Of a DNA stretch of 64,000 bases, positions 4,616-23,158 are shown piece after piece. Position 1 is the first letter of the stretch. Each line of letters starts with the position of its first letter. The notes under the pieces are model-generated. The model was not told the DNA's origin and did no database searches. It worked only from the letters and a program-made list of their open reading frames with translations. Made by a program: the position numbers and the translations under genes. The stretch is from a phage, in the NCBI GenBank assembly GCA_027262695.1, contig GCA_027262695.1_4722.1, one strand, 5' to 3'.

Positions 4616-7414
<2,799 letters not shown>

Positions 7415-14860: not shown

Positions 14861-15045
14861 TACATCGGATTAGGCGCTTTATGGTATTTATAGATACCTA
14901 CTTTCTTCTGTTTGTCTTTACCAGGTCCTCGCTTAACGCGTTTGTTGAAAACACGATCCAAATATCGAGTAGCTATAAATCTGGACAAATACACCGGATC
15001 GATATAATCCATGGTACCTGCTTCTGTTTCTTCGAGACACTGCAT
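14848..15045 (-). CDS. hypothetical protein
   Basis: 65-aa ORF. Confidence 0.3.
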   Translation of the reverse strand: MQCLEETEAGTMDYIDPVYLSRFIATRYLDRVFNKRVKRGPGKDKQKKVGIYKYHKAPNPMYCWR

Positions 15046-15071
15046 CCGTAACTCCTCTTTCCTCTAAGAAA

Positions 15072-15275
15072 TCAATCCAACATAAGCCACGGCATCGCTT
15101 TCACGAGAGAATCCAATGCAACGTCCATGATTCTTCGTTCCGACGTTTGTGTGATGCGTGCCGTAAATCGCTTTCCTTTATTACAACCCTTCTTGTATTT
15201 CCCTTTGATATAACGAACACCAATCGTGTCACGAATAACAAGTTTGGCTACGTCGTAGGGCGATATCTTAGTCAC
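15072..15275 (-). CDS. hypothetical protein
   Basis: 67-aa basic ORF. Confidence 0.3.
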   Translation of the reverse strand: MTKISPYDVAKLVIRDTIGVRYIKGKYKKGCNKGKRFTARITQTSERRIMDVALDSLVKAMPWLMLD

Positions 15276-15450
15276 CGTGTTTACCTCAAGTAGAGAAGGT
15301 TATCGGCTTTATTTCTACCTGTCCGTACATCCAGGTGTATCTCGATTTTCCTTTACGAGGACCTTTCTTAAATTTGGTGCTTATCGAAATACGATAACAG
15401 TACGACCAGGTCGCATGATTTATAGTGATCTTGTCCGCCATGCCTTACCC

Positions 15451-15744
15451 TCAGTGCAATTGTTTCTTAAACCCAGCATTAAGGAGCTGGGTTCTTTCAT
15501 CGATAGTATCCAACGTGGTCAATAACAACCTGCGTTGTTCTTTCGTCAACATCTCTCCTTTAAGACGCTGTTCTATTTCTATCTTCAGTAGCATCGGCAT
15601 CGTTTGCGATAGCACGCTATCCGCTTCTATCTCGTAATTATCTTCCGGCGTGGGTAATACATCACTAACACCGACAAGATAATGGCCGATAACGGTCCGT
15701 CGTCTTTCCATTGCCTCCAGCAGTTCGCTGCTCACTTCATCCAC
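15451..15744 (-). CDS. hypothetical protein
   Basis: 97-aa ORF; AAAGGAGG RBS after palindromic hairpin. Confidence 0.45.
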   Translation of the reverse strand: MDEVSSELLEAMERRRTVIGHYLVGVSDVLPTPEDNYEIEADSVLSQTMPMLLKIEIEQRLKGEMLTKEQRRLLLTTLDTIDERTQLLNAGFKKQLH

Positions 15745-15759
15745 GATTATCCTCCTTTA

Positions 15760-15781
15760 AGGGCGAGGTACCTCGCCCTTA
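15760..15781 (-). terminator. palindromic hairpin after thyA
   Basis: TTAAGGGCGAGGTACCTCGCCCTTAA. Confidence 0.4.
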
Positions 15782-15787
15782 AGATCT

Positions 15788-16084
15788 TTATACCGCTACT
15801 TGTGCTTTAATAGCAGGGTGTGATTGATATCCGACGAACACGAAGTCTTCGTAACGGTAATCCGTGATACTCTCTGGTTTCCGCACAATTTTCAGTTTTG
15901 GTAACGGATACGGCTCACGACTAAGTTGTTCTTTAACCTGTTCGAAGTGGTTATGGTAGATGTGACAATCTCCACCTGTCCACACGAACTCCCCAACGTC
16001 CATATTCAGCTGTTGGGCGATCATGTGTGTCAACAGCGAATATGATGCGATGTTGAACGGAACACCTAAAAATACGTCAGCACT
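15788..16084 (-). CDS. thyA: thymidylate synthase, exon 2
   Basis: [25 protein letters not shown]...[10 protein letters not shown] matches ThyA C-terminal region. Confidence 0.85.
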
Positions 16085-17191
16085 CATTCTGTTCAGATAA
16101 GGTCGTTAGTCTTATCCCGTTATGTTAACCGCTGTAGATTATCTCTACAGTTCGGACTATATCACGATCTCCTTCCCTGGAGACCCCTCCCGTTTCACAC
16201 CCACTTGGGCGTTACGCTACTCATCACTATTTTCATTCATCCGTTTAGTGCTTTCGCTAGTCTCTGGGCATTCTTCTACAAGTCTGTACGATTCAAATTT
16301 GGGATTTTTACTGCCTAATCGATAAAGTATCGTTGCCGGAACAACGCCTAACTGCCGAGCCGCTTCAGTTAGAGAGACGTACTCGATTCCATCGATTTCC
16401 ACTTTACGTGCGTTAAGTGGAATATTCCCTCTATTCCTTTCGGCGATGAGACGGCGCGTTTCTTCGCTATGATGTCGACCATAGAACGGATTCCTTTCTC
16501 CGGTTCTGGTTTTCGCAAACTCCGACATCTTTCGACGTGTTTCGTCACTGACTTTTACCCCTAAACGTCTCGCTCTGGATGCAGCAATATTCTCAGGAGT
16601 ACACACTTTTTGTCGAATGAGTTCACGTGTTTCAGGCGTATGTGTTCGACCATACATCCCGTTACGTTCACCGGGTTTTCCGTACACTATACGACGCTCC
16701 TCTGCTGTTAAGGATGCGTTTCTTTTGTTAACAGCATAAGCTATCTTATCGATTATTTTGTCACGGTCTGGGTTTCTGGTGAGGTTGTCTCCGCCTACGA
16801 CACCCAACCCAATATTAAGCAAAGCTTCATTCGGTAGACAGTCAATGAACTTCTGCTCTAAAGCATATGCTTCTTCACGAGAAGCGCATTCATCGACCGT
16901 AACCGAGATAAAGCAGCCCTTATTATAGGCATTTTGTAATCGACTGTTTCGATGAACACCGCGACGCAAATTCGATTTGTGATCCACTAAGCGTTGCTTT
17001 AAATTGTTGGTACTACCAACATAGACATCACCATCTTGGGTACATAACCGATATACTACTGGTTTTTTCATACTGCCTCCTTTATAAGAGAGACAGACAT
17101 GTAGAAGGTTAGCAACGGATTAGCCCGTAGGCTTTCCCGTTTTAAGGAGGTTATTCGACGTAGCTCACGCTACGAAGGCGCAGTTGCATTT
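16085..17191 (-). mobile_element. group I intron (td-type) in thyA
   Basis: Minus-strand P-like AAAACGGGAAAGCC (17143-17130), R-like CAGAGACTAGCG (16266-16257), S-like GATATAGTCCG (16164-16154); exon 1 ends CGT, IGS GCGC; ORF after QR is read-through (KCNCAFVA). Confidence 0.75.
16217..17071 (-). CDS. GIY-YIG homing endonuclease (intron-encoded)
   Basis: N-terminal VYRLCTQDGDVYVGSTNNLKQRLVDH (GIY-YIG), repeated RNGMYGRTHTPETR / RNPFYGRHHSEETR NUMOD-like motifs; AAAGGAGG RBS. Confidence 0.8.
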   Translation of the reverse strand: MKKPVVYRLCTQDGDVYVGSTNNLKQRLVDHKSNLRRGVHRNSRLQNAYNKGCFISVTVDECASREEAYALEQKFIDCLPNEALLNIGLGVVGGDNLTRNPDRDKIIDKIAYAVNKRNASLTAEERRIVYGKPGERNGMYGRTHTPETRELIRQKVCTPENIAASRARRLGVKVSDETRRKMSEFAKTRTGERNPFYGRHHSEETRRLIAERNRGNIPLNARKVEIDGIEYVSLTEAARQLGVVPATILYRLGSKNPKFESYRLVEECPETSESTKRMNENSDE

Positions 17192-17914
17192 ACGCTGATA
17201 AAGCTGACACGACAGTGCGCGCGTAGGTACGTTATGCGCATTCAACCAGAGTTCGGTTTCGCTCTGTTTAACGTCGTCAGTAACCCATCGTGCCCTTAGC
17301 GCATCGTTACGGTGGACGTAATAAACACGTTCGTCGATGGTGAGCTCGTGAGTGTAGAACTGATAGAAACTATGGCATGCGGGAAGCGCCATATCGTCTA
17401 AATCGCCTACGTTCCATGCACTAACGATAATCCGCCGAGAATCAGGATCTTCTTTGAGTTGACGCATCACGTTTGCAATTTGGTCATGGTGTTTAACATA
17501 CAAGAGATGTTTGACCATACCGTCGTTAACAATACCGCAATACTCATAACCACGTTGCATCAAAGTACGGGTACGTTCTGTATCATGCGGAACAACCACT
17601 TTGTAGTCAATCCATTCTCGCCATTGTCTGCCGTAAATCGGTCCTAGATTCCCTTCCTTATCAGCCCACTCATTCCAGATGCGAACACCATTATCCTGAA
17701 GATAAGCAACGTTTGTGTCGCCGTTAAGAAACCAGAGCAGTTCGTGGATAACGCTCTTAAGGTGAATCTTCTTAGTGGTTACCAGCGGGAATCCTTTCTT
17801 CAAGTCAAAACGCATTTGACGCCCGAATACCGAACGGGTACCGGTACCTGTACGATCGGCCTTATCGCGACCGTTATCCATGATGTCTTGCAAAAGGTCC
17901 AAATACTGTTTCAT
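17192..17914 (-). CDS. thyA: thymidylate synthase, exon 1
   Basis: [61 protein letters not shown] match ThyA. Confidence 0.85.
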
Positions 17915-18187
17915 TTTAATCCTCTAAGTGTTTCAAGTAGTTCCTGAAATTTGTAACGATATTTAGGATCGCTTAACGTGCAGCAGCAACCATGTAACAC
18001 GTTATACGCGTAATCGGCTTGTAAACCACGAACCTTAGGATCCAATGATAGATTCAATGACGCACCATCAAAAATCCACGCTTCAATGTTCTTCTTGGAT
18101 TCCTTCGTTAACGTCGTTTTTCACCTCGTCGTAAAAGTAAATAGAGTTTTGTCGAGACGCCCTAATTACATACAACGTCGGTTATCC

Positions 18188-19069
18188 TCAGTAACAGTTA
18201 TAATGGGTTCCAAGCCGCTCCGGTTTTCTCAGAAGACTATCTTTAAGCGGTACGACGTCGATATCAACGTTTTCTGAATAATAACCATTAGAACTACCAT
18301 ACCAACGAATAACAACACATCCTTTTGCTGTACGAATATGGTAAAATGTCCATCGCGTACGTTTGCAAAAGTCGTCATCCTCGTCTCTTTCCTCGGTTCT
18401 TTCTTCAGCGCTAAGTATCTTCTCACCAATAATGTCGTTAAGATCGCCATCGATGTCTTCAAGGTACACTTTTTCACAGCAATCTTGCTTATGGCAGAAT
18501 TCAACAACGTTCCCATCGCCCCGATAGAAAAGAAGGGCAATGCTGTATTGTAGCTGTTCGGCCGTTAAGTCTGTCGCGCAATACAAACTTTGATCTTCGG
18601 TTATCACCAAGACATTGTTGATTACGTGTCCGGCAAGCGCTCCGATCTTATTTACCGTGATAATCGGACGAACCGGTTCAGGTTGAACGATAGGGATACG
18701 AACACAGCCAATTAAAGCCATCCGTCCTTTCTTTGGTCTAACCGCAAGGTAAGGTGATTTTCTTGGGTGGTTATGTAGTCGTATTTCTACCTCGTTGAAT
18801 TTAATCCCGTATATACCCAAAAACCGATCGAACAGTTTATGAAATTCCTCGGTTGCCTCTTGCAGTGTGATGTTATTTACTGTGAGTTTATGTCCCCTGA
18901 ACACCCGGGTTAAATCGATAACATCCAGTGTTTTGAAATATATTTCCGTAAGGGGATGACCCGTGTTTTCCAGGTAAGTAATTGTTCTTTGAACCACGAT
19001 TTTAGGTGGTGTGCCTTTAAAACGTTTCAGATATTTAACACGATAACGGGTATGATCCGATGTTAACAT
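18188..19069 (-). CDS. hypothetical protein
   Basis: Start set to ATG 19069 after GGAGAGGAG RBS (ORF track start 19168 lies in a hairpin). Confidence 0.5.
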   Translation of the reverse strand: MLTSDHTRYRVKYLKRFKGTPPKIVVQRTITYLENTGHPLTEIYFKTLDVIDLTRVFRGHKLTVNNITLQEATEEFHKLFDRFLGIYGIKFNEVEIRLHNHPRKSPYLAVRPKKGRMALIGCVRIPIVQPEPVRPIITVNKIGALAGHVINNVLVITEDQSLYCATDLTAEQLQYSIALLFYRGDGNVVEFCHKQDCCEKVYLEDIDGDLNDIIGEKILSAEERTEERDEDDDFCKRTRWTFYHIRTAKGCVVIRWYGSSNGYYSENVDIDVVPLKDSLLRKPERLGTHYNCY

Positions 19070-19135
19070 TTTAATCTCCTCTCCTGGCTTCAGAGAATTC
19101 TTAAAATCCGTTAGTTTTGATAGATAGGGTAAGAC

Positions 19136-19164
19136 GGCATAAAAGCCTCCCATTACGGGAGGCT
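19136..19164 (-). terminator. GC hairpin followed by TTTTATGCCG box
   Basis: Minus strand GCCTCCCGTAATGGGAGGC TTTTATGCCGTC. Confidence 0.55.
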
Positions 19165-19176
19165 TCATTAATCAGC

Positions 19177-19725
19177 TTATTTCACAAGAACAGCGAATTC
19201 GAGAACGTAAATAGCTTCATCGTCCATCGGATTTGTTGTGGTATAACCAACGAAGCAATAGCCCATAACCGCGATAAACTCGCTAAGTTTATCGATGACT
19301 GATGCCCCGATACGATCGTCAACAGACAGACGACATTTACGGGTTATGTTTTGCCCGCGAGGAACACCAGCCAACACGGATAGAAAATGTACGATCCGGT
19401 TATTGGTTGTGAACTGTACGTAATCATCGTAGTGCTTAAGGTCTTTCATCGCAGACTCTACAGTCATCCGACGACCAGGTGACACATACTCAGAATAAGA
19501 ATAAGCTGCAATCGTGCGGCGGTCTTCAGTGAGGTAAGTATTCCCTTCGGGATGATAGCTCTCGATTGTTCCGTCTTCATAGGCGACGGTTACAACAGGT
19601 GCGCCGTACTCGTCGCGACCAAAATCAATTTTACATTTATTTGAAAGCGGTAGAACCGTACAAGGCTTTGCATTGTTCTCATCAGGGAGATCGTAACCAC
19701 TCATCATTTTCAAGAACATAGACAT
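19177..19725 (-). CDS. hypothetical protein, member 1 of three-gene tandem paralog family
   Basis: N-terminal MSMFLKMMSGYDLPDENNAKP...GNTYLTEDRRTIAAYSYSEY shared with next two genes. Confidence 0.55.
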   Translation of the reverse strand: MSMFLKMMSGYDLPDENNAKPCTVLPLSNKCKIDFGRDEYGAPVVTVAYEDGTIESYHPEGNTYLTEDRRTIAAYSYSEYVSPGRRMTVESAMKDLKHYDDYVQFTTNNRIVHFLSVLAGVPRGQNITRKCRLSVDDRIGASVIDKLSEFIAVMGYCFVGYTTTNPMDDEAIYVLEFAVLVK

Positions 19726-19777
19726 AATAGAACCTCATGATAATAAATAATAGAAATGATAGATAGTACAACAAATT

Positions 19778-19801
19778 GAGGGGGTATTATCCCACCCCCT
19801 C
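19778..19801 (-). terminator. GC hairpin
   Basis: GAGGGGGT..ACCCCCTC between paralog genes. Confidence 0.45.
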
Positions 19802-19811
19802 GCAGGGATTA

Positions 19812-20345
19812 CTACTTAACGATCGCGATGATTTTTCCGCCAGCACCGGCGTAATATGCCGTTAACTTACCAGTAAACAACTCTTGTAAAAGACGATTTA
19901 CATGACTAACAAAGTTAGGATTGTCTGATTTTACAAACTCGATGTGGCGCGTTTGTTTTATATCACGATCGATTAAGCGGATTTCCAACAACGCATGAAT
20001 AAGGTTATCGTCAAGTTCACCGTTCGCATCCAGCACTCCCCCGTACGTCGTAGCACGGGCGTCTGCATACATACGGTCAACATCATCCTTCCCAAAACAA
20101 CTGGAATAGGTATACGTTGCGATGGTATTACCATTATCCATCACGTAAACGTTACCGCCTGGGTAATCGATAAATCGTTGAGACTTATCGCCGTGAGCTA
20201 CGAACTCCAACATCGGTTTACCCAACGAATTACGGTTGAATTCAATTGTGGTCAAGCGATCTGGTACCACATGCAACGTAAATGGTTTTGCATTGTTCCG
20301 ATCGCTAGTATCACAGTTACCCATTACTTTAATAACAACACTCAT
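19812..20345 (-). CDS. hypothetical protein, member 2 of three-gene tandem paralog family
   Basis: MSVVIKVMGNCDTSDRNNAKP...GNVYVMDNGNTIATYTYSS. Confidence 0.55.
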   Translation of the reverse strand: MSVVIKVMGNCDTSDRNNAKPFTLHVVPDRLTTIEFNRNSLGKPMLEFVAHGDKSQRFIDYPGGNVYVMDNGNTIATYTYSSCFGKDDVDRMYADARATTYGGVLDANGELDDNLIHALLEIRLIDRDIKQTRHIEFVKSDNPNFVSHVNRLLQELFTGKLTAYYAGAGGKIIAIVK

Positions 20346-20378
20346 GTTTTATTCCTTAGTAGTCCTAGTAGTAGTAAT

Positions 20379-20402
20379 GAAGGGGATTTAACCCTCCCCT
20401 TC
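20379..20402 (-). terminator. GC hairpin
   Basis: GAAGGGGA...TCCCCTTC between paralog genes. Confidence 0.45.
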
Positions 20403-20417
20403 AAGGGTTAACATGTA

Positions 20418-21017
20418 TCACCAAACCGATTGGTTATTTTCCACTGAAGGTAAAACAACAATATACATTACCGTTCTTTCGGTCGATGTATTTTCCGGTT
20501 CTGGATAAATAAACTTAATGTTGGGATAACCACAATCGCCGAACAGTTTTTTCAGCAATGGAGTTTGACTCTCCGTCACTTTAACTGGACCCACGCTATA
20601 TCTCGACAGACGGATATTAAACGCGCGAATTGGTTCATCTAAACATTTAGGAGGCGTATGTTTCAATGCTAGAAGCATATGTTCAATGTGTAGACATTTA
20701 ATATCCGCCGGTAAATTCTGGTATGAATCCAAGCCTTGGAGAAAATCAAGCGTCGCTTTACAATCTTCGGCGCTAAATTTTTCTTCGAACTCAAACTTAG
20801 ATACCGTCGTTTTACCATCGACAACATAAGTATTACCTGTCGGAGAAAACGATCTTTTTGTTTTATCATTCATGACAACGTTAATGAATGGATTCCCTGT
20901 AGGATCGCGACTGAATTCAATACAAGCTCCGTCGGGAACGGGATATAAATTGAAAGGACGATTAGCATCGGCAATTTCGTTAGAATGTCCGTTAATCATT
21001 TTCAAATAAATAGTCAT
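20418..21017 (-). CDS. hypothetical protein, member 3 of three-gene tandem paralog family
   Basis: MTIYLKMINGHSNEIADANRP...GNTYVVDGKTTVSKFEFEE. Confidence 0.55.
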   Translation of the reverse strand: MTIYLKMINGHSNEIADANRPFNLYPVPDGACIEFSRDPTGNPFINVVMNDKTKRSFSPTGNTYVVDGKTTVSKFEFEEKFSAEDCKATLDFLQGLDSYQNLPADIKCLHIEHMLLALKHTPPKCLDEPIRAFNIRLSRYSVGPVKVTESQTPLLKKLFGDCGYPNIKFIYPEPENTSTERTVMYIVVLPSVENNQSVW

Positions 21018-21098
21018 TTGATACCTCGGTAAATAAGTAGTTAAAGTAAGTAGTATTGAGGAATTTCACCTCATTAGATAATCTATTTTGGTAATGTT

Positions 21099-21410
21099 TT
21101 ACTGAAACAAGACATTAAATTCGACAAGATACCCATCGGATCTATCGCCACGATACCTGTTACAGAAAACGCCGAATTTCATCAAGAACTCACATAACTC
21201 TTCGGCTTTGTATAACGGAATACGATTTTCGTCGAGCAGAGGACACATATGGCTAACCCGCTCTGACGAATCAACGCAACACAAATAAAGAAGGAATCGA
21301 ACAATAGCTCGGTTCTTAGTGAAGCTCTCGAATTCACCCGCAGCTCTGAACTCATCGAGGAGCTTTGTCGTTTTCTTCAATCGTTCACGATCAAGCATGT
21401 TAACCTCCAT
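21099..21410 (-). CDS. hypothetical protein
   Basis: 103-aa ORF. Confidence 0.45.
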   Translation of the reverse strand: MEVNMLDRERLKKTTKLLDEFRAAGEFESFTKNRAIVRFLLYLCCVDSSERVSHMCPLLDENRIPLYKAEELCEFLMKFGVFCNRYRGDRSDGYLVEFNVLFQ

Positions 21411-21420
21411 ACAAACATAA

Positions 21421-21453
21421 CCCTCCTCCTTCCCTTACGGGTTGGAGGAGGGG
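21421..21453 (-). terminator. GC hairpin followed by TTATG
   Basis: CCCTCCTCC...GGAGGAGGG; near-identical to hairpin at 60683. Confidence 0.5.
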
Positions 21454-21462
21454 ATTATGCTG

Positions 21463-21777
21463 TTATTCTGTTTTAGGTGACGAACCGTTCTTCTTGAAGT
21501 CGGATTCGTATTTCACATTAGAATCGAGAACCTCACGAACGGTTTTATCTGTACAACCGCGGGCGATATACGCGTTCAAATCGTCACGCAATTTACGCAT
21601 CGTTGTTTTATCCACATCAGAAACATCTGACTTGGTAAGACGGAATGCAATCGCATCACGAATTTTATTCAACGTTGCTGGATTATTACGCTGCTCTGCA
21701 AATACCGCTTTGATGAAGGTACCGCTGTCTTTCGAAGCAACGGCAGCATCAAGAATCTCAATATGCTTTTCAGACAT
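21463..21777 (-). CDS. hypothetical protein
   Basis: 104-aa ORF. Confidence 0.45.
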   Translation of the reverse strand: MSEKHIEILDAAVASKDSGTFIKAVFAEQRNNPATLNKIRDAIAFRLTKSDVSDVDKTTMRKLRDDLNAYIARGCTDKTVREVLDSNVKYESDFKKNGSSPKTE

Positions 21778-21828
21778 TTTCTTTCCTTTAATAAACGATC
21801 ATCGTCATATTCATTGTGCAGGATACCG

Positions 21829-23142
21829 TCACTTAGACACCGCCATGCTTCGCGCTAACGCAACGTCGTACGCATCCATGATTGCGTCGCCGATAGCAGT
21901 ATGACGAATCAACGGAATACCTACGTCTGGATACTCTTTGGTACCCATGATCGATACCGGTTTGTCCTGATAGGCTGCGATCATCGAACGAATGTCCTGA
22001 ACCTGGTTGTATCGGCAGATGGGTTTAAAGCCTGCTTTACGGAACCAATACTCTAATTGAGGCCAATCGGTTTCACCGCGGGCAAGATAATAGAAGGTAT
22101 CTTTACCGTAGTATTCTGTCATTTTGTCACGAATATTGTTAACGAACGCATTGACTTCAGCAATGGCTTCTTTATAGCCCATTACCTTACCATGCTGGAA
22201 ACAATAATCACGTGCTTCTTTCGGTGCTTTGGTTTGCCACCACTCTACCGTTGATTCGCTGATACGACCACCGTCAGCGATTTGACCGTGCACGTCAGGG
22301 AAGACATCAATACGCGGACCGTTAACGATGGATTCTGGATTAGCCAGATCGAAGAACACGATACCGATTTCTAACAACACCCCGTTCTTTTCCAGACTAA
22401 GGTTCTCAACATCCAAACAGAATGCAGGCTTCTCTACCGCTAATGGCTCGAATGAATGGTTGCTGGTATCCGACTCAGCTTCGAGTTCGGTGGCGTCCAG
22501 ATCGGTATCCGCAGGTTTCAGTTCTATTGCGGCATTATCGAGTCCCGATAACGAAAAATAGTCTTCGAAGAAATCAGGTACCGTCATACCACGCAAGTCG
22601 ATATCACAATCTTCCATCCATTGTTTAAACTGGCGCTCATCAACATGGATCGCTAAACGGCATGGTCTGGAACGATTATCCAACACTTCGTCGATCCAGA
22701 AGAAAGTGCGTATAAGTAAGTAAGGATTATGCTCCGCGATGATTTCTTGGCTAGCGTGAGCATCATACACCATTACCTGTATTATTTCCTTACGTGTGTT
22801 ATACGGATCAACCATCAATCGCCGCACGACTTCTCCCAGGTATTCCAGCGCACGTGTGTACACGGTAGATCCAACTTGTCCGTACGCGCTTATACCCGTC
22901 AATAGTTCCTTATAAGACGCGTCTGAAAGCGAAGACGATAGCACACGCGCCAGCTCGGCATTGTATATACTGCATGATTTCTTCGGGGCGATAGCATCAT
23001 GTAACGCTTCAATAAACGCTGGTCCATCAATATCAAACAACCATCCTTGGCGTCGGTGGGCGGTATATCGTAATAACGCACCGATAGCTGCCTGGGGTGG
23101 TGTATATTCTTTTTCGTTAATTTCAAACAGTAGTTCGCTCAT
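21829..23142 (-). CDS. protein with C-terminal DEDDh-type 3'-5' exonuclease domain
   Basis: Exo motifs CLDVENLSL (D-x-E), YYLARGETDWPQLEY, HTAIGDAIMDAYD (H-x4-D); N-terminal ~230 aa unassigned. Confidence 0.55.
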   Translation of the reverse strand: MSELLFEINEKEYTPPQAAIGALLRYTAHRRQGWLFDIDGPAFIEALHDAIAPKKSCSIYNAELARVLSSSLSDASYKELLTGISAYGQVGSTVYTRALEYLGEVVRRLMVDPYNTRKEIIQVMVYDAHASQEIIAEHNPYLLIRTFFWIDEVLDNRSRPCRLAIHVDERQFKQWMEDCDIDLRGMTVPDFFEDYFSLSGLDNAAIELKPADTDLDATELEAESDTSNHSFEPLAVEKPAFCLDVENLSLEKNGVLLEIGIVFFDLANPESIVNGPRIDVFPDVHGQIADGGRISESTVEWWQTKAPKEARDYCFQHGKVMGYKEAIAEVNAFVNNIRDKMTEYYGKDTFYYLARGETDWPQLEYWFRKAGFKPICRYNQVQDIRSMIAAYQDKPVSIMGTKEYPDVGIPLIRHTAIGDAIMDAYDVALARSMAVSK

Positions 23143-23158
23143 TTTAACACCTTTTTTG

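Follow-up and report, generated by a model that had tools for sequence, protein, structure and literature searches.

A variable accessory-gene array built on an uncharacterised N-terminal domain in a Goslar-like phage

Introduction

Morons of lambdoid phages are genes that carry their own terminators and are inserted between conserved genes. Polymorphic toxin and effector loci, such as CDI/CdiA-CT, Rhs and the MuF-toxins of temperate phages, are built from a conserved N-terminal part and many unrelated C-terminal parts, and they are accompanied by orphan C-terminal modules and chimeras. Here, we compare with these systems a four-gene array at positions 19143-21453, including its terminal hairpins, of a 64,000-nucleotide stretch of phage DNA (GenBank assembly GCA_027262695.1, contig GCA_027262695.1_4722.1), which we refer to as the window. 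Between positions 19000 and 21500, the window is 93% identical at the nucleotide level to the Escherichia coli phage vB_EcoM_Goslar (Goslar; locus L001, accession MK327938), a nucleus-forming jumbo phage of the Chimalliviridae.

Three of the four genes, termed gA, gB and gC, share an N-terminal domain (N-domain), and the product of the fourth, gD, is a homologue of the gA C-terminal domain that stands alone. Like morons, the array consists of gene-plus-hairpin cassettes that are present or absent between conserved flanks and are dispensable. However, it resides in a virulent jumbo phage, and it contains tandem paralogues. Like the polymorphic toxin loci, the array and its wider family have a conserved N-terminal part, many C-terminal parts, a free-standing C-terminal module (gD) and a recombinant chimera. 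Unlike them, the family is made up of small cytoplasmic proteins of lytic phages, most of which have no C-terminal part, and it departs from polymorphic toxins in three defining respects, having neither toxin domains nor immunity genes and an N-domain that does occur alone. A third parallel comes from Goslar itself and other chimalliviruses, in which proteins with a DUF7941 module form paralogues with a shared N-terminal module and variable C-terminal domains and are abundant virion or baseplate-filament components (10.64898/2026.04.21.720040). The array proteins follow the same design but are unrelated to the DUF7941 proteins by Pfam; the Goslar orthologues of gA and gB, gp143 and gp144, are detected at trace level, and the N-domain is also found outside the chimalliviruses.

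The array is best read as a hypervariable, moron-like series of dispensable, independently terminated accessory-gene cassettes. Three cassettes code for soluble two-domain proteins with the same ~80-residue all-beta N-domain and different ~100-residue C-terminal domains (C-domains), and the fourth codes for one C-domain alone. The domain family is new and uncharacterised, and its use in a variable accessory island is a familiar one.

Results

Three consecutive open reading frames (ORFs) of 182, 177 and 199 residues were found exactly where the initial annotation had placed three tandem paralogues with divergent C-termini on a shared N-terminal scaffold. All array genes and flanking genes described here are on the minus strand (Table 1). 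The shared domain was recovered by blastp over the first ~80-120 residues, with E-values of 9e-15 (gA-gC), 3e-12 (gA-gB) and 4e-11 (gB-gC), and the hidden Markov model (HMM) of the family matched all three proteins within 1e-22 to 1e-27 (gB, 2e-22; gC, 4.5e-24). The sequence motif noticed earlier was also confirmed in gA, gB and gC as hhhK.M...NAKP...GN.Y, and 13 columns are invariant across the three N-domains, including K6, P21, G61, N62 and Y64. The C-terminal halves are indeed divergent, as profile-profile comparison by hhalign indicated no significant relationship among them (E 0.09-0.27). At these values, the suggestion from a MAFFT alignment that the three halves are very diverged homologues is unproven and was rejected.

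The count of three holds for the N-domain genes, and tblastn over the whole 64-kb window, in agreement with an HMM scan, found no fourth copy of the domain. However, the array itself is larger than three genes; gD had been overlooked. The C-terminal half of gA is homologous to gD (E 1e-6 to 1e-4; blastp of gA residues 93-182 against gD, E 5e-7 to 9e-7). Translation of gD probably starts at the ATG at 21398 behind GGAGG, and its homologues P0131 and P0133 begin with MLDRERL. The amino acid identities to the Goslar orthologues are 95.6% for gA, 88.8% for gB and 97% for gD. An intact gD orthologue at Goslar 6343-6642 (minus strand) is unannotated; GenBank annotates a 75-residue ORF on the opposite strand (gp145) in its place, which is a probable mis-annotation.

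We compared the locus in Goslar with related syntenic contigs (L018, L019 and L021-L024). All of them have common flanks, an exonuclease-like gene and a capsid latch gene on one side of the array and thyA on the other. Between the same latch and thyA flanks, the number of N-domain genes varies from zero to three. L021 has no N-domain gene and retains a single 81-residue gene, and L024 has one gA-like gene (34% identity) together with a DUF7448 gene. Two N-domain genes are found in Goslar, L018 and L019 (gD-gB-gA), and three in L022 and L023, which have no gD (gC-gB-gA-DUF7448), and in the window (gD-gC-gB-gA-DUF7448). Compared with Goslar, gC and its downstream hairpin (20377-21035) constitute a single clean insertion, and L022 carries the same gene-plus-hairpin unit. 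The orthologue of gC in L022 and L023, P0004, is 91% identical in the N-terminal half and 66% in the C-terminal half; tblastn found no match to gC among 50,697 phage records. In L021, a Goslar-like metagenomic contig, the whole array is replaced by the gene for the 81-residue protein P0134 (5001-5246), in which the first ~28 residues are of gD origin and precede sequence of a gA-type C-domain. This arrangement looks like a deletion via recombination between two homologous domains. Moreover, synonymous divergence differs sharply between the two halves of gB and of gC, and this mosaic suggests recombination at the domain boundary. Because cassettes have been gained, lost and recombined among otherwise syntenic genomes, the array genes are dispensable for the core lytic cycle, and the array behaves as a set of mobile, dispensable accessory cassettes.

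The wider family emerged only when 1.84 billion representatives were searched exhaustively by HMMER with a profile of the three N-domain sequences (E<=1e-3), as word-indexed searches returned only near-identical Goslar-like or unnamed hypothetical proteins. The HMMER search retrieved 128 clusters, of which 18 reached E<=1e-10. Seven multi-repeat giants were left out as probable repeat-driven matches (P0040, P0054, P0081, P0083, P0114, P0124 and P0129), and the remaining 121 representatives were analysed. In every true member the N-domain begins at residue 1-4 and runs to ~80, the exceptions being P0056 and P0067 with longer predicted N-terminal leaders. The family motif reads hhhK[MI]MSGEDhPDSD..K.F ... 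F.R ... G.P ... GN.YVMN..GKTIA.F., with near-invariant positions K6, M8, D15, K20, G61, N62, Y64 and T71. With a median pI of 4.9, the domain is mildly acidic, and no membrane segment was found among the 121 representatives apart from one borderline hydrophobic stretch in P0008.

The size classes show how the domain is used. It constitutes the protein alone (<=115 residues) in 72 of the 121 representatives (about 60%), while 35 are of 116-260 residues and 14 exceed this length. Clustering of the C-terminal parts of the 49 multidomain members gave at least 27 unrelated groups, so that the variable C-termini seen in the array extend to other phages. The earlier term 'scaffold' is apt in that the N-domain is shared, but a mere scaffold is a less likely description. 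Since the N-domain is usually a complete protein by itself and lies at the extreme N-terminus, we infer that it is the functional core.

None of the 49 multidomain members matched a Pfam family at E<=1e-3, and the members tested had neither an NCBIfam match nor a PHROG function. Apart from two sub-threshold matches at chance level, the four array proteins gave no Pfam match at E<=1, and they gave none to DUF7941/PF12699. Judged by profile matches, the proteins belong to the uncharacterised PHROG 10337/10807 family, which comprises a stand-alone profile of ~99 columns (10337) and an Agricanvirus gp198-type profile of 379 residues (10807), both labelled 'unknown function'. Stand-alone members match phrog_10337 at E 2e-11, and the RAY-type P0105 matches phrog_10807 at 1e-252 and phrog_10337 at 2e-8. 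The matches of gB and gA to the two profiles are weak, with respective E-values for 10337 and 10807 of 1.5e-6 and 2.4e-4 for gB, and 4.5e-3 and 5.2e-3 for gA; gC has no direct PHROG match. The C-terminal halves are outside these two profiles, with one weak match elsewhere (gB C-half to phrog_25629, E 0.015). The two PHROG entries have the same N-terminal domain as the array genes, but they assign no function and do not describe the architecture of a domain with variable extensions.

Among GenBank chimalliviruses, the N-domain is found in Goslar, Erwinia Agricanvirus (e.g., RAY gp198), 201phi2-1 (gp34), Phabio, SA002 and Viktualia. Outside this group, it occurs in 45-kb Acinetobacter Obolenskvirus phages, a Vibrio phage and Proteus phage 10 (223 kb, unclassified in its record). 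GenBank annotates these proteins as hypothetical throughout. Two pattern scans of one genome per species from 185,579 bacterial and archaeal species returned zero matches in one case and a single 38-kb contig of a metagenome-assembled genome in the other. Within the limits of pattern-based scanning, the N-domain family is thus essentially phage-only.

The AlphaFold2 model of gA was confident when built from a 56-row alignment (mean predicted local distance difference test (pLDDT) score 91, predicted template modelling score 0.81), which was needed for this quality; the single sequence gave a pLDDT of 35. In this model, an all-beta N-domain of seven strands (residues 3-75) precedes an alpha/beta C-domain (residues 83-181) with three helices followed by beta-alpha-beta-beta. 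Homology to a characterised structural or enzymatic family, which according to the initial annotation would speak against a host-interaction family, was sought by both sequence and fold and was not found. A Foldseek search of the gA model against the PDB gave nothing below E 0.057 and no match to structurally characterised anti-defence proteins or to deposited phage virions, phiKZ among them, and profile searches of PDB sequences were empty. All proteins returned from BFVD are uncharacterised and come from Goslar, MadMel, 201phi2-1, Phabio and a few other phages. The N-domain is without a detectable sequence or fold relative outside its phage-only family.

Both halves of the proteins are under purifying selection. 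The ratios of nonsynonymous to synonymous substitution rates (dN/dS) against Goslar are 0.13 for gA, 0.16 for gB and 0.06 for gD. Over six orthologue pairs, they range from 0.03 to 0.12 in the N-domain and from 0.11 to 0.36 in the C-terminal half, which is two- to seven-fold less constrained (0.03 and 0.23, respectively, for gA).

We then consider the hairpins (Table 1), which the initial annotation had described as bracketing each gene. Those at 19778 and 20379 do separate gA from gB and gB from gC. The one at 21421 does not adjoin gC, because gD intervenes, and gC is unbracketed on its upstream side; the spacer between gC and gD (21018-21098) is no more structured than expected by chance (z -0.2). 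Of the sequence features of intrinsic terminators, a GC-rich stem and a U-rich tail right after it, two hairpins have both (19143-19165 and 19778-19801), that at 21421-21453 has a partial tail and that at 20378-20403 has none. The Goslar annotators labelled two of the hairpins of the array as terminators, including, as putative, the counterpart of 19143-19165. Bracketing by hairpins is not borne out as a property of the family, as 24-29 of the 85 gene junctions in the window (~30%) are occupied by a hairpin at least as stable as -14 to -15 kcal/mol. Perfect hairpins of >=8 bp number 13 in the 64 kb as opposed to ~1.6 in shuffles, and many of them have the same polypurine/polypyrimidine arms. 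With hairpins at four of its five junctions, the array is only slightly enriched (binomial P about 0.03). The hairpins are the generic, terminator-like gene punctuation of this phage.

Two further observations concern the spacers and hairpins. The outer stem at 21421-21453 is conserved. In Goslar, L018 and L021 the inner stem-loop reads UUCCCUUACGGGUU, of which the window carries the reverse complement, AACCCGUAAGGGAA; the centre of this palindrome appears flipped. On the minus strand, the spacers upstream of gB (20346-20377) and gC (21018-21060) have a common TACTAC-rich sequence (AUUACUACUACUAGGACUACUAAGGA and CAAUACUACUUACUUUAACUACUUA, respectively), which could be a phage promoter element or a recombination substrate for cassette insertion. 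A sigma-70 promoter scan scored no better than shuffles, and an Rfam search of 15000-22000 found no known RNA family.

Table 1. Genes and hairpins of the array and its surroundings in the window.
Feature	Position	Strand	Description
Thymidylate synthase, piece	15788-16087	-	whole split gene 15788-17914
Thymidylate synthase, piece	17165-17914	-	ends ...SCQLYQR
DUF7448 protein gene	18188-19051	-	287 aa from likely start; Pfam DUF7448 E 1e-23
Terminator-like hairpin downstream of gA	19143-19165	-	AAGCCUCCC-GUAAU-GGGAGGCUU, then UUUAUGCC; U-tract UUUAU after closing U-A pairs; -18.4 kcal/mol, z -4.3; kept in Goslar, L018, L019, L022, L024 and L021
gA	19177-19725	-	182 aa, Goslar gp143 orthologue; N-domain aa 1-82 (nt 19480-19725); C-terminal alpha/beta domain aa 83-182
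Hairpin between gB and gA	19778-19801	-	GAGGGGGUG-GGAUAA-UACCCCCUC, then AAUUUGUUGU; -18.0 kcal/mol; in terminator-scan list; kept in Goslar, L018 and L022, missing from L019
gB	19812-20345	-	177 aa, Goslar gp144 orthologue; N-domain aa 1-86 (nt 20088-20345); C-half unrelated
Hairpin downstream of gC, between gC and gB	20378-20403	-	-15.8 kcal/mol; no U-tract, then AUUACUAC; also downstream of the L022 gC orthologue, moving with the gC cassette
gC	20418-21017	-	199 aa, not in Goslar; N-domain aa 1-82 (nt 20772-21017); C-half a third unrelated sequence
gD	21099-21398	-	99 aa; free-standing homologue of gA C-domain; no N-domain
Hairpin between capsid latch gene and gD	21421-21453	-	-29.5 kcal/mol, z -6.4; partial U-rich tail (UUAUGUUUGU); upstream edge of the array; kept in all relatives
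Capsid latch gene (gp146 orthologue)	21463-21777	-	104 aa; 96% aa identity to Goslar gp146; directly upstream of the array
Exonuclease-like gene	21829-23142	-	437 aa; relatives carry PF16473 Rv2179c-like domain

The latch gene adjoins the array in all seven loci. In a 2026 cryo-electron microscopy preprint (10.64898/2026.04.21.720040), its Goslar counterpart gp146 is identified as a capsid 'latch' protein that stabilises the penton, with 55 copies in the capsid model. The DUF7448 gene on the other side is itself a presence/absence cassette, found in L022-L024 and missing from Goslar, L018 and L021. Its likely start lies behind GGAGAGGAG; the mechanical ORF of 326 residues would extend into the gA terminator. 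The exonuclease-like gene is another mosaic gene beside the array. Its N-terminal ~235 residues (22440-23154) are without nucleotide similarity to the Goslar version (409 residues; mechanical ORF 417), and the 437-residue form also occurs in L022. The two pieces of the thymidylate synthase gene are separated by an insertion of ~1.1 kb (16072-17216) that is not in Goslar and holds an ORF of 284 residues (16217-17071) with a GIY-YIG-type N-terminus. This arrangement resembles an intron of the T4 td type that carries a homing endonuclease. Rfam gave no group I intron at E<=0.1.

Discussion

The reading as a hypervariable array of accessory cassettes is supported by the gain, loss and recombination of cassettes between constant flanks. 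The predicted hairpins would serve as common intrinsic terminators or as elements that stabilise 3' ends, so that each cassette would be a transcription unit of its own. Recombination, both in the repeated spacers and between the homologous domains, may adjust the number of paralogues. In such a model, the N-domain would most likely be a module that binds a partner conserved among hosts or among phages, and the interchangeable C-domains would add or alter specificity. As to the role, we tentatively place the most likely one at the phage-host interface, in host takeover or counter-defence, judging from the architecture and the population pattern, because the dispensability, turnover and cassette structure of the array point in this direction. 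The suggestion of host interaction or anti-defence in the initial annotation thus keeps its accessory-type pattern (zero to three copies in near-identical phages), but nothing shows an anti-defence activity or a target.

Several points weigh against our interpretation. No homology or experiment links the family to a host target or a defence system, and the function is deduced. The selection on both halves is purifying rather than positive, which is weaker support for an arms race than dN/dS >1 would be. The fold search used the two-domain model, in which a weak match to the N-domain alone may be masked. Furthermore, the estimates of about 7 copies of gp143 and about 2 of gp144 per virion fit a head-associated role equally well, and in about 6 of 15 loci of small phages the stand-alone gene has a terminase, portal or head-morphogenesis gene beside it.

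The last two points bring up an alternative that we regard as unlikely, namely that these are low-copy head-associated or injected proteins, in which the N-domain docks on a capsid, portal or inner-body component and the C-domains are cargo delivered with the DNA. The array abuts the capsid latch gene, and both gp143 and gp144 were detected by label-free liquid chromatography-mass spectrometry of CsCl-purified Goslar virions, with 3 peptides and an estimated 4.5-10.5 copies for gp143, and 2 peptides and an estimated 1.1-2.6 copies for gp144 (10.64898/2026.04.21.720040, Table S4). The masses listed there equal those calculated for the gA and gB orthologues. However, the same table lists the non-structural PhuZ and chimallin at >100 estimated copies (10.64898/2026.04.21.720040), so the trace detection is unspecific and demonstrates translation rather than specific packaging. 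The 28 Goslar proteins that the text of the preprint names as modelled include neither gp143 nor gp144 (10.64898/2026.04.21.720040). The 201phi2-1 protein gp34 is located among virion genes but is not flagged as a mass-spectrometry virion protein, whereas its neighbours are. Searches of the literature on Goslar gp143/gp144 and 201phi2-1 gp34 gave no functional data, the text matches concerning phiKZ gene numbers.

Gene order elsewhere can be read both ways. The stand-alone gene (X) lies between MuF-like head-morphogenesis and scaffold genes in L003 (TerL-portal-MuF-like-X-scaffold), directly after the head genes in Obolenskvirus (TerS-TerL-portal-head protein-X) and just upstream of the terminase genes in L008 (X-TerS-TerL) and, at a distance of one to three genes, in L002, L005 and L033. 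At other loci its neighbours are lysis, nrd or methylase genes, and such head-unrelated contexts (L035 next to nrd, L010 and L012) argue against a head-associated protein, as do the missing structural match to solved phage virion proteins, including those of phiKZ, and the absence of any family member from L021. The contexts are compatible with accessory slots at module junctions while also keeping a head-related role alive. A conserved gene neighbourhood as a clue to function was rejected, since the neighbours differ between small phages, as is usual for accessory genes, with a partial association with terminase and head modules.

It is also conceivable, albeit quite unlikely, that the proteins have another phage-internal role, such as assembly chaperone, regulator of transcription or translation, or nucleus-related factor, with the paralogues as redundant copies. 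Purifying selection on both halves speaks in favour of such a role. However, the family is also present in 40-45-kb phages that build no nucleus, and a close relative, L021, has lost it entirely.

A polymorphic effector or toxin-like system, with the N-domain as a delivery or targeting handle, the C-domains as effectors and gD as an orphan module for recombinational switching, is very unlikely in our view. The conserved N-domain with its many unrelated C-domains, the free-standing C-domain homologue within the array, the natural chimera formed through it and the mosaic synonymous divergence between halves all resemble such systems. Yet a handle without cargo makes little sense for the large share of members that consist of the N-domain alone, and none of the 49 C-terminal extensions matches a toxin, enzyme or immunity family. 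No immunity gene is found downstream of any array gene, where there are only spacers of 72-86 nucleotides with hairpins and, as an extra gene, the gA C-domain homologue gD. No secretion or delivery machinery is implied, and the ribosome-binding site of gD together with its strong constraint indicates an expressed gene rather than a silent cassette. The last alternative, decaying duplicates or mis-called ORFs without function, has only the lack of annotation in its favour and is effectively refuted by the dN/dS of 0.03-0.36 over several orthologue pairs, the peptides of the Goslar orthologues, the confident fold prediction and the 128 homologue clusters.

Accessory cassettes probably acting at the phage-host interface continue to be our preferred reading. 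A bolder reading, which we consider quite doubtful, would see in the N-domain a new fold used by phages as a universal adaptor, docking on a conserved bacterial hub, a defence component or the capsid interior, its function being diversified as C-modules are exchanged by recombination with orphans like gD. If true, the family would amount to an intracellular, viral version of polymorphic effector systems, found in a model phage that is genetically tractable.

For most genes of nucleus-forming jumbo phages, no function has been assigned, and accessory islands are the usual seat of host-range and counter-defence determinants. What is defined here is a phage-only domain, compact and confidently foldable, that has no Pfam entry and is used in modular fashion across unrelated phages. 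The natural Goslar-like variants with zero, one, two and three copies provide ready-made genetic controls, and Goslar is experimentally tractable. If the N-domain does bind a conserved host or defence component, the family would represent a new group of inhibitors, diversified by domain swapping in a lytic phage. Otherwise, the analysis corrects the annotation of Goslar and marks the locus as dispensable for engineering.

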